From assembly GCF_002854065.1 (NCBI RefSeq), contig NZ_CP024147.1: DNA of 64,000 nt. The stretch is one strand, 5' to 3'. A model generated the notes under the pieces. That model had not been told where the DNA came from. It saw only the letters and a program-made list of their open reading frames with translations, and did not search any database. Source of the stretch: Escherichia coli (GTDB lineage: Bacteria; Pseudomonadota; Gammaproteobacteria; Enterobacterales; Enterobacteriaceae). The first letter of the stretch is position 1, and every line of letters starts with the position of its first letter. Positions 13,444 to 14,575 of this stretch are shown here, one piece after another. The position numbers and the translations under genes are program-made.

Positions 13444-13689
13444 TCAACCACCTTTACGAATCAAATAACGATAAGGCAGTCCATCCGTCTCTTTGGCAAC
13501 CAGTTCGTGTTCCATAAAGGTACAAAACCCAGGGATATCGCGGGTCGTCGCCGGATCGTCAGCAATAATCAGCAACGTTTCACCTGGCTGCATATTGCGC
13601 ACTGTTTTGCGCACCATCATTACTGGTTCCGGGCAGCGCAGGCCAAGTGCGTCGAGTGTGTGGTCAGGGCTGGAAAAGAGATCGGTCAT
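13444..13689 (-). CDS. tusA: Sulfur carrier protein TusA
   Basis: 81 aa, [33 protein letters not shown]..., conserved CPxP motif. Confidence 0.95.
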
Positions 13690-13867
13690 TTTCTTCTCAT
13701 CACATAAAAAAACGGCGCTAGTTTACGCCCTGTGAGTCCGTAAGCAAACCAGGTTAACGATTGCGTAAAAATTAACCATTGCATTGTCAACGTAAAGCAG
13801 TATCATGCGGCGGCTCGAAAAAAGGGTAAGCACGTTATTATGTTAAGGTAACAGACGTGTCGTACGT

Positions 13868-13904
13868 ATTGGGTTCCCTCACCCCAATGGTTAATCAAAA
13901 AGGT
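13868..13904 (+). ncRNA. Candidate preQ1-I riboswitch aptamer in the yhhQ 5' leader
   Basis: UUGGG-UUCCCUCAC-CCCAA-UGGUUAAUCAAAAAGG: 5-bp P1 stem, C immediately 5' of the P1 3' strand, A-rich tail ending in AAGG that doubles as the yhhQ SD; near-collinear with the Thermoanaerobacter preQ1-I aptamer as I recall it (CUGGGUCGCAGUAACCCCAGUUAACAAAACAAGG). Confidence 0.45.
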
Positions 13905-13909
13905 ACAAT

Positions 13910-14575
13910 ATGAACGTTTTCTCGCAAACTCAACGCTATAAAGCGTTGTTCTGGTTATCGTTATTTCATCTGCTGGTGATCACCTCCAGTAACTATCTGG
14001 TTCAGCTTCCCGTCTCCATTTTTGGTTTCCATACCACCTGGGGCGCGTTTAGCTTTCCGTTTATCTTTCTCGCTACCGACCTGACCGTACGTATTTTTGG
14101 CGCACCGCTGGCCCGTCGTATCATCTTTGCGGTGATGATCCCGGCATTGCTGATCTCCTACGTCATCTCGTCGCTATTCTATATGGGTTCATGGCAGGGA
14201 TTCGGCGCACTCGCCCACTTCAACCTGTTTGTCGCCCGTATCGCCACCGCCAGTTTCATGGCCTACGCGCTGGGACAGATCCTCGACGTGCACGTTTTTA
14301 ACCGCCTGCGTCAGAGTCGCCGCTGGTGGCTGGCACCGACAGCGTCCACACTGTTCGGTAACGTCAGCGACACGCTGGCCTTTTTCTTCATTGCCTTCTG
14401 GCGTAGCCCGGATGCCTTTATGGCTGAACACTGGATGGAAATCGCGCTGGTCGATTACTGTTTCAAAGTGTTAATCAGTATCGTTTTCTTCCTGCCAATG
14501 TATGGCGTATTACTCAATATGCTGTTGAAAAGACTGGCAGATAAATCCGAAATCAACGCTTTGCAGGCGAGTTAA
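13910..14575 (+). CDS. yhhQ: Queuosine-precursor (preQ0/preQ1) transporter YhhQ, COG1738
   Basis: 221-aa membrane ORF MNVFSQTQRYKALFWLSLFHLLVITSSNYLVQLPV... Confidence 0.95.
   Translation: MNVFSQTQRYKALFWLSLFHLLVITSSNYLVQLPVSIFGFHTTWGAFSFPFIFLATDLTVRIFGAPLARRIIFAVMIPALLISYVISSLFYMGSWQGFGALAHFNLFVARIATASFMAYALGQILDVHVFNRLRQSRRWWLAPTASTLFGNVSDTLAFFFIAFWRSPDAFMAEHWMEIALVDYCFKVLISIVFFLPMYGVLLNMLLKRLADKSEINALQAS

Follow-up and report, generated by a model that had tools for sequence, protein, structure and literature searches.

Type III riboswitches of the preQ1-I class lie upstream of yhhQ in Pseudomonadota, among the gamma-proteobacteria (PMC10622847, PMC11625349, PMC5372724), and YhhQ transports queuosine precursors (PMC5372724). 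The subtype was defined by McCown et al. in 2014, as that paper is cited in PMC10622847 and PMC11625349, and its defining features are taken here second-hand from PMC10622847 and a 2024 review (PMC11625349). Both sources describe a UU after the 5' strand of P1, a pyrimidine-rich loop and an AC at the specificity base, together with a variable linker, a poly-A run and an AAGG that pairs into P2 (PMC10622847, PMC11625349). The review lists the regulatory mode of type III as "Full SDS Occlusion" (PMC11625349).

The E. coli representative is the subject of a study by Schroeder, Kiliushik, Jenkins and Wedekind (J Biol Chem 2023;299:105208; PMC10622847), which we found by full-text search. Ligand binding, the three-dimensional fold (on a linker-shortened 30-mer) and reporter repression are all established there for the sequence considered here. 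The wild-type Eco 36-mer binds preQ1 with a KD of 57.9 nM by ITC (1:1, N about 0.9), and SPR on the same RNA gives a KD of 120 nM for preQ1 versus 15,970 nM for preQ0—a 133-fold preference that the structure accounts for, since the methylamine forms a salt bridge with a phosphate (PMC10622847). The co-crystal structure of the 30-mer was solved at 2.30 A (PDB 8fza), shorter linkers giving better affinity (PMC10622847). The cytosine numbered C15 in the 36-mer and C14 in the crystal recognises preQ1 at its Watson-Crick face, and the C15U mutant binds the ligand 64,017-fold more weakly; a contact between A27 and preQ1 is described as well, and P2 consists of the pairs U11-A28, C10-G29 and C9-G30 (PMC10622847). 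A GFPuv reporter in E. coli delta-queC is repressed 6.1-fold by preQ1 with an EC50 of 291 nM, and its regulation is abolished in U7C, C15U, C16U and A33C (PMC10622847). The reporter was engineered: it carries a heterologous plasmid promoter, a P1 closing pair changed to C-G and a Shine-Dalgarno (SD) sequence extended to AAGGAGG (PMC10622847).

The same two sources cover the other preQ1 riboswitches. Type II, represented by Thermoanaerobacter tengcongensis (Tte) and the Bacillus subtilis (Bsu) queC leader, shares with the E. coli element an H-type pseudoknot with a short P1, the 'AC' motif with its specificity cytosine and an A-rich L3 tail, and its alpha-site pocket is nearly the same (PMC10622847, PMC11625349). 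It differs in its longer, purine-containing loop and shorter tail. In Tte no more than the first two bases of the SD are buried, Bsu acts by transcription termination, and discrimination between preQ1 and preQ0 is 17-fold, which is weaker than in type III (PMC10622847, PMC11625349). The genes that type II typically controls are queT or queCDEF, not yhhQ. Type I from Carnobacterium antarcticum ('Can') belongs to the same fold class and also has UU after the P1 5' strand, but binds two stacked preQ1 molecules, carries 'UC' in place of 'AC' and occludes the SD only indirectly (PMC10622847, PMC11625349). PreQ1-II (RF01054), found in Streptococcaceae/Lactobacillales upstream of queT, has the ligand and complete SD occlusion in common with type III, whereas its HLout pseudoknot fold is unrelated and its binding mode is another one (PMC11625349).

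The preQ1-I riboswitch upstream of yhhQ

The window, meaning the whole 64-kb stretch of DNA that was analysed, carries the 36-mer ATTGGGTTCCCTCACCCCAATGGTTAATCAAAAAGG directly upstream of yhhQ, as read from the sequence (Table 1). It is identical in 36/36 bases to the "WT Eco riboswitch 36-mer" AUUGGGUUCCCUCACCCCAAUGGUUAAUCAAAAAGG in Table S1 of the published study (PMC10622847). Position n of the 36-mer corresponds to window position 13867+n and, in the 5' half, crystal position n to 13868+n; the closing P1 pair U1-A19 of the paper lies at 13869-13887 (PMC10622847). The type III features of sequence, layout and location are all present in the window. We therefore identify the element as the class I preQ1 riboswitch of type III that E. 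coli carries in the yhhQ 5' leader, with a probability of about 0.96. This figure covers the best explanation as a whole, feedback by SD occlusion included, with the native transcript start and the regulation of chromosomal yhhQ as its inferred parts. The E. coli aptamer itself is already known: its subtype was published in 2014 and the E. coli element in 2023.

Table 1. Features of the yhhQ leader and gene in window coordinates
Feature	Position	Strand	Remarks
PreQ1-I type III riboswitch, aptamer and expression platform	13868..13903	+	36/36 identity, Table S1 of PMC10622847
P1 5' strand UUGGG	13869..13873	+	Pairs with 13883-13887
Pyrimidine-rich loop UUCCCUCAC	13874..13882	+	Roles from crystal structure and mutants
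Loop UU	13874-75	+	Contacts ligand and A-tail
CCU, anti-SD strand of P2	13877-13879	+	
'AC' motif A13881-C13882	13881-13882	+	C13882 is the preQ1 specificity base
P1 3' strand CCCAA	13883..13887	+	
L3 linker, variable: U + GGUUAAUC	13888..13896	+	GGUUAAUC (13889-13896) is the linker named in PMC10622847
Conserved A-run	13897..13901	+	A-minor contacts along P1 minor groove per literature; A13900 touches preQ1
SD AAGG, 3' strand of pseudoknot P2	13900..13903	+	Pairing mapped from crystal structure
yhhQ, preQ0/preQ1 transporter (Vut_1/COG1738)	13910..14575	+	221-codon ORF; RefSeq product name
Putative yhhQ promoter	13779..13806	+	-35-like TTGCAT 13779-13784, 16-nt spacer, -10-like TATCAT 13801-13806

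The original prediction, made from the raw sequence, had called a preQ1-I riboswitch before yhhQ while doubting whether the element was known for E. coli. The call is supported by the exact identity to a published type III RNA; the element had, however, already been published and crystallised. The likeness to the Thermoanaerobacter aptamer that it invoked is sound for the shared fold and pocket, but that aptamer is type II and the window element type III. Reading the letters alone nevertheless recovered a real 36-nt riboswitch with its functional bases correctly assigned. The order of P1 5' strand, loop, P1 3' strand and tail (UGGUUAAUCAAAAAGG, 13888-13903) is as proposed, with UACAAU between the tail and the yhhQ ATG. 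The string placed in the 40 nt before the ATG is present; it is 35 nt long and starts 41 nt, not 40, before the ATG. The AAGG, rightly taken for the SD, stands 6 nt from the start codon. The proposed 5-bp P1 consists of five Watson-Crick pairs and is the RNAfold minimum free energy helix, which includes A13868-U13888 as a possible sixth pair. The cytosine 5' of the P1 3' strand, suspected of pairing with the ligand, is indeed the specificity base by structure and mutants (C15 of the 36-mer), and the A-rich tail ending in AAGG acts as both SD and P2 pseudoknot strand in the published structure.

The window holds a single copy of the 36-mer, with 0 mismatches, and 100 shuffles contain none; a single match, versus 0 expected, is likewise all that the looser descriptor GGGTTCCCTCACCCC-N(4-15)-AAAAGG yields. 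Eight of the nine loop bases are pyrimidines. The RNAfold energy (-5.5 kcal/mol, z = +1.1) is no better than that of shuffles, as expected of a small pseudoknot aptamer, a structure beyond the reach of nested-structure folding. The aptamer itself is the same as the published representative; the window adds native surroundings that the published constructs lack, namely the SD context AAGGUACAAU-AUG, where the reporter has AAGGAGG, a U-A pair closing P1, and the upstream leader with its promoter. RefSeq names the identical E. coli gene yhhQ, 7-cyano-7-deazaguanine/7-aminomethyl-7-deazaguanine transporter, and its neighbours are zntA, tusA (minus strand, 13444..13689), dcrB and yhhS.

The Rfam PreQ1 model (RF00522) does not recover the element. 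Infernal, the check suggested by the original prediction, gave no RF00522 match at E<=10 on 13500-14200 (701 nt) or 13850-13920 (71 nt), and cmscan against Rfam 15 found nothing at any family's gathering score in the whole window; E-values are multiplied by 4227 families, so that a weak RF00522 score would go unlisted. When RF00522 is forced onto a short-linker orthologue, that of Phytobacter massiliensis (L022), the alignment is collinear, with P1, GGUUC, CCC and the A-rich tail lining up, but the score is only 10.0 bits where the threshold is 39. In practice the model does not pick up type III elements, whose pyrimidine loop is shorter and whose linker is longer. The missing match is not evidence against the riboswitch, given that a preQ1-bound structure has been solved for this very sequence; treating the lack of a significant covariance-model hit as refutation, as had been proposed, gives a false negative at this locus, and a negative result of this kind should not count as refutation. 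The one RefSeq E. coli record that we inspected has no riboswitch feature here, only tusA and yhhQ. Annotation based on Rfam gathering thresholds will therefore miss some of the type III preQ1-I riboswitches of Enterobacteriaceae.

Proposed switching mechanism and its ligand

In the mechanism that we propose, the A-rich tail and the AAGG would be accessible when the ligand is absent, and yhhQ would be translated. PreQ1 pairs with C13882, stacked above P1 (13869-13873/13883-13887), and is also read by U13874/75 and by A13900, the first SD base, while the A-run docks into the P1 minor groove. P2 (A13901-U13879, G13902-C13878, G13903-C13877) closes the H-type pseudoknot and the whole SD is buried, steps that the literature shows for this sequence; ribosome binding would thereby be blocked. 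The outcome would be negative feedback: with ample preQ1, the importer of queuosine precursors would be turned off. A feedback loop through SD sequestration had been part of the original prediction, and it agrees with the published structure and the preQ1-dependent repression of the reporter. We infer a native transcript start upstream of 13868 and regulation of the same kind for chromosomal yhhQ; our literature search found no report of regulation from the native chromosomal yhhQ leader or of a mapped transcription start.

It is improbable that the riboswitch, real as it is, has preQ0 and not preQ1 as its physiological ligand. YhhQ imports preQ0 in preference to preQ1, and an earlier in-line probing study, on one type III representative, reportedly suggested a preference for preQ0, both points as relayed in PMC10622847. 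The exact 36-mer, by contrast, prefers preQ1 in the SPR measurements quoted above, the salt bridge involves the methylamine, and the reporter responds to preQ1 with a submicromolar EC50 (PMC10622847). These data argue for preQ1 as the ligand of the yhhQ riboswitch.

Conservation of the aptamer and covariation of P1

To the sequence identity and genomic context the present analysis adds an extreme conservation of the element and covariation of P1. Of 5426 complete E. coli genomes, 5425 contain the 56-nt stretch 13860-13915, 4883 of them without a change and 542 with one mismatch; the mismatch in the one such strain inspected (G749) is T -> C at 13863, outside the aptamer. In E. coli MSB1_8B (L083, NZ_LR890536.1) the place of the native upstream leader is taken by the 3' portion of a group II intron element, an ltrA reverse transcriptase/maturase gene. 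The intron element ends ~2 nt upstream of the aptamer (the equivalent of window ~13866) and leaves the 36-mer intact; for the riboswitch to be transcribed here, a promoter within the intron or beyond its upstream end would be required.

A scan with the YhhQ protein, one genome per species, gave 80 Enterobacteriaceae loci, all with at least 88% protein identity. All 80 species carry the core GGGTTCCCT(C/A)ACCCC, a variable linker and AAAAAGG, 6-7 nt before the yhhQ ATG. The AAAAA run is invariant in 80/80 species, and so is the loop UUCCCUCAC except for C13880, which is A in two of them; TTCCCT is invariant in the 80 species and in five distant leaders described below, and A13881-C13882 in every aligned sequence. 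The invariant runs reach 9 and 5 nt in the aptamer core and 7 nt in the tail. As a baseline, 18 of 200 third-codon positions of yhhQ (9%) are invariant in the same 80 species, and within the first 600 nt of the coding sequence invariant runs extend to 6 nt at most. The aptamer core and the tail with the SD are the most constrained nucleotides of the yhhQ locus across the 80 species.

The linker, counted with the two P1 partner bases that follow CCCC, varies in sequence, as does the upstream flank, and measures 6-11 nt in 77 species and 47-73 nt in the remaining three. Long linkers were seen in Klebsiella (L096-L098, ~220-303; L077:60-141), Raoultella terrigena (L080:496-603) and Enterobacter sp. 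10-1 (L076:496-603), where 47-73 nt with a predicted hairpin part the type III core from AAAAAGG, as against the 6-11 nt found elsewhere. The predicted hairpin is not consistent among these loci: in L076, L077 and L080 the base of the insert, CCC(G)...CGGG, would put the tail beside P1, whereas in L096-L098 the base reads CGGA and RNAfold gives a different, weaker fold. We found no description of the long-linker variant in the type III literature covered. That these relatives represent a functionally distinct type III architecture and that native yhhQ is under combined control by PurR at transcription and preQ1 at translation is a tentative proposal, and one that we regard as rather unlikely.

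Within Enterobacteriaceae the P1 helix is maintained with little covariation. The inner four pairs can form in 80/80 species, the three G-C pairs among them never varying. The fourth pair (13870-13886) changes from U-A to A-U in four Buttiauxella species and remains paired in all 80, and the fifth (13869-13887) is paired in only 48/80 species. Pairing of the enterobacterial leaders, which the original prediction expected to be conserved, is therefore kept for the inner pairs, but the covariation among them is weak and amounts to one compensatory change.

A homologue search that listed only proteins with at least 87% identity gave no phylogenetic depth, and we used YhhQ representatives at 41-71% identity instead, taking the upstream regions from their contigs. 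The TTCCCTnAC loop and the tail of an A-run ending in GG are found upstream of 5/5 usable homologues at 53-71% identity, with P1 strands UGGG/CCCA (L085), GAGG/CCUC (L086), CGGCGG/CCGCCG (L088), GAGGG/CCCUC (L094) and UUUGGG/CCCAAA with one extra C (L095). In the combined alignment, four of the six P1 pairs show double changes. The covariation score of P1 is 0.257 versus 0.065 +/- 0.025 in shuffles (0/500), above every slid register; with so small a sample, chosen moreover through the loop pattern, the score is supporting evidence for P1, not independent proof. These changes support the view that P1 is kept by compensatory substitutions in more distant homologues.

MAFFT alignments misplaced the A-tail owing to the varying linker length, and the tail and P2 counts were therefore made with anchored regular expressions; only P1 was put through the structure-pair covariation counts. 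P2 and the SD never vary, and the complementarity of A13901-G13903 to U13879-C13877 is present, so that covariation is silent on P2. Such invariance is expected if the GG must also pair with 16S rRNA.

In the leader of L095, whose YhhQ is 71% identical, the extra C lies between the AC motif and the P1 3' strand (L095:156-176, TTCCCTCAC-C-CCCAAA), which implies either a 10-nt loop or a bulge adjoining the specificity base. The type III motif is absent upstream of four YhhQ/Vut_1 homologues at 41-51% identity (L090-L093). The genes of these four lie in different neighbourhoods. In this small sample the riboswitch follows only the closer YhhQ clade (at least 53% identity).

The upstream leader and transcription of yhhQ

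We aligned the tusA-yhhQ intergenic region across 17 genera. Three blocks are conserved: GTTAACGATTGCGT (13753-13766), AACCATTGCA (13773-13782) and AAAGCAGTAT(C/G/T)ATGCGGCGG (13794-13813). The part of the last block that reads AAAGCAGTAT(C/G/T)AT is kept across genera and contains the -10-like hexamer (Table 1), which appears as TATCAT, TATGAT, TATTAT and TAATAT in different genera—a pattern that would be typical of a -10 element. A start near 13813, as predicted from this hexamer, would place the aptamer in the 5' UTR. A scan for consensus sigma-70 promoters gave no match at this site, because the -35 element matches only three of six bases, and a literature search for a yhhQ promoter, PurR site or transcription start returned nothing usable. 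In many genera the promoter-like block lies within roughly 10 nt of P1.

The PurR operator has the consensus ACGCAAACGTTTGCGT. Plus-strand positions 13751-13766 (AGGTTAACGATTGCGT) match it at 12/16 positions by manual count. The core of this PurR-like sequence, GTTAACGATTGCGT, is conserved across the compared genera, and the version in L085, GTTAACGTTTGCGT, comes nearer to the consensus. Regulation by PurR is annotated for COG1738/YhhQ (PMC5372724). Together these observations suggest that yhhQ may be under dual purine and preQ1 control, through what would be a putative PurR site.

It might be argued that the aptamer plays a minor part in the native control of yhhQ, either because transcription dominates, for instance through PurR near 13751-13766, or because the mRNA starts in or downstream of the aptamer. 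The silent promoter scan, the annotated PurR regulation with its PurR-box-like conserved block, and the engineered promoter, SD and P1 closing pair of the published reporter (PMC10622847) all lend themselves to this argument. Against it, the core and the tail with the SD are the most conserved part of the locus in 80 species, and distant homologues show covariation of P1; it is difficult to account for purifying selection of this kind unless the aptamer functions in cis. The -10-like block, moreover, is conserved upstream of the aptamer in all compared genera. We consider a minor role very improbable. The prospect that the likeness to a riboswitch is due to chance or low complexity, or that the conserved stretch is a binding site for a protein or another DNA-level element and not an RNA structure, is practically negligible: the lack of an Rfam match and the unremarkable folding energy would allow it, but it is refuted by the 36/36 identity to an RNA with a solved ligand-bound structure and the P1 covariation in distant leaders, where P1 is kept by compensatory changes while loop and tail stay fixed, and it is at odds with the zero shuffle matches and the constant distance to the start codon.

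The spacing between the promoter-like block and the aptamer differs among species. E. coli and E. albertii have ~50 extra nt (window 13814-13867), in which RNAfold predicts a hairpin at 13830-13860, and an unrelated insertion of ~130 nt precedes the aptamer in Citrobacter amalonaticus (L010) and a Kosakonia species (L041).

Both terminator-like matches returned by our scan are in or near the tusA start region. The one on the minus strand, at 13704-13729 (GGCGTAAACTAGCGCC GTTTTTTTAT), combines a hairpin and a T-run in the manner of a terminator and lies a short way upstream of where tusA starts. Reading the alignment, we see the block TAGTTTACGCC conserved in other genera, while its pairing partner is not kept by compensatory changes. 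This minus-strand TAGTTTACGCC block could be a promoter element of tusA, with TAAACT as its -10-like hexamer, rather than a terminator.
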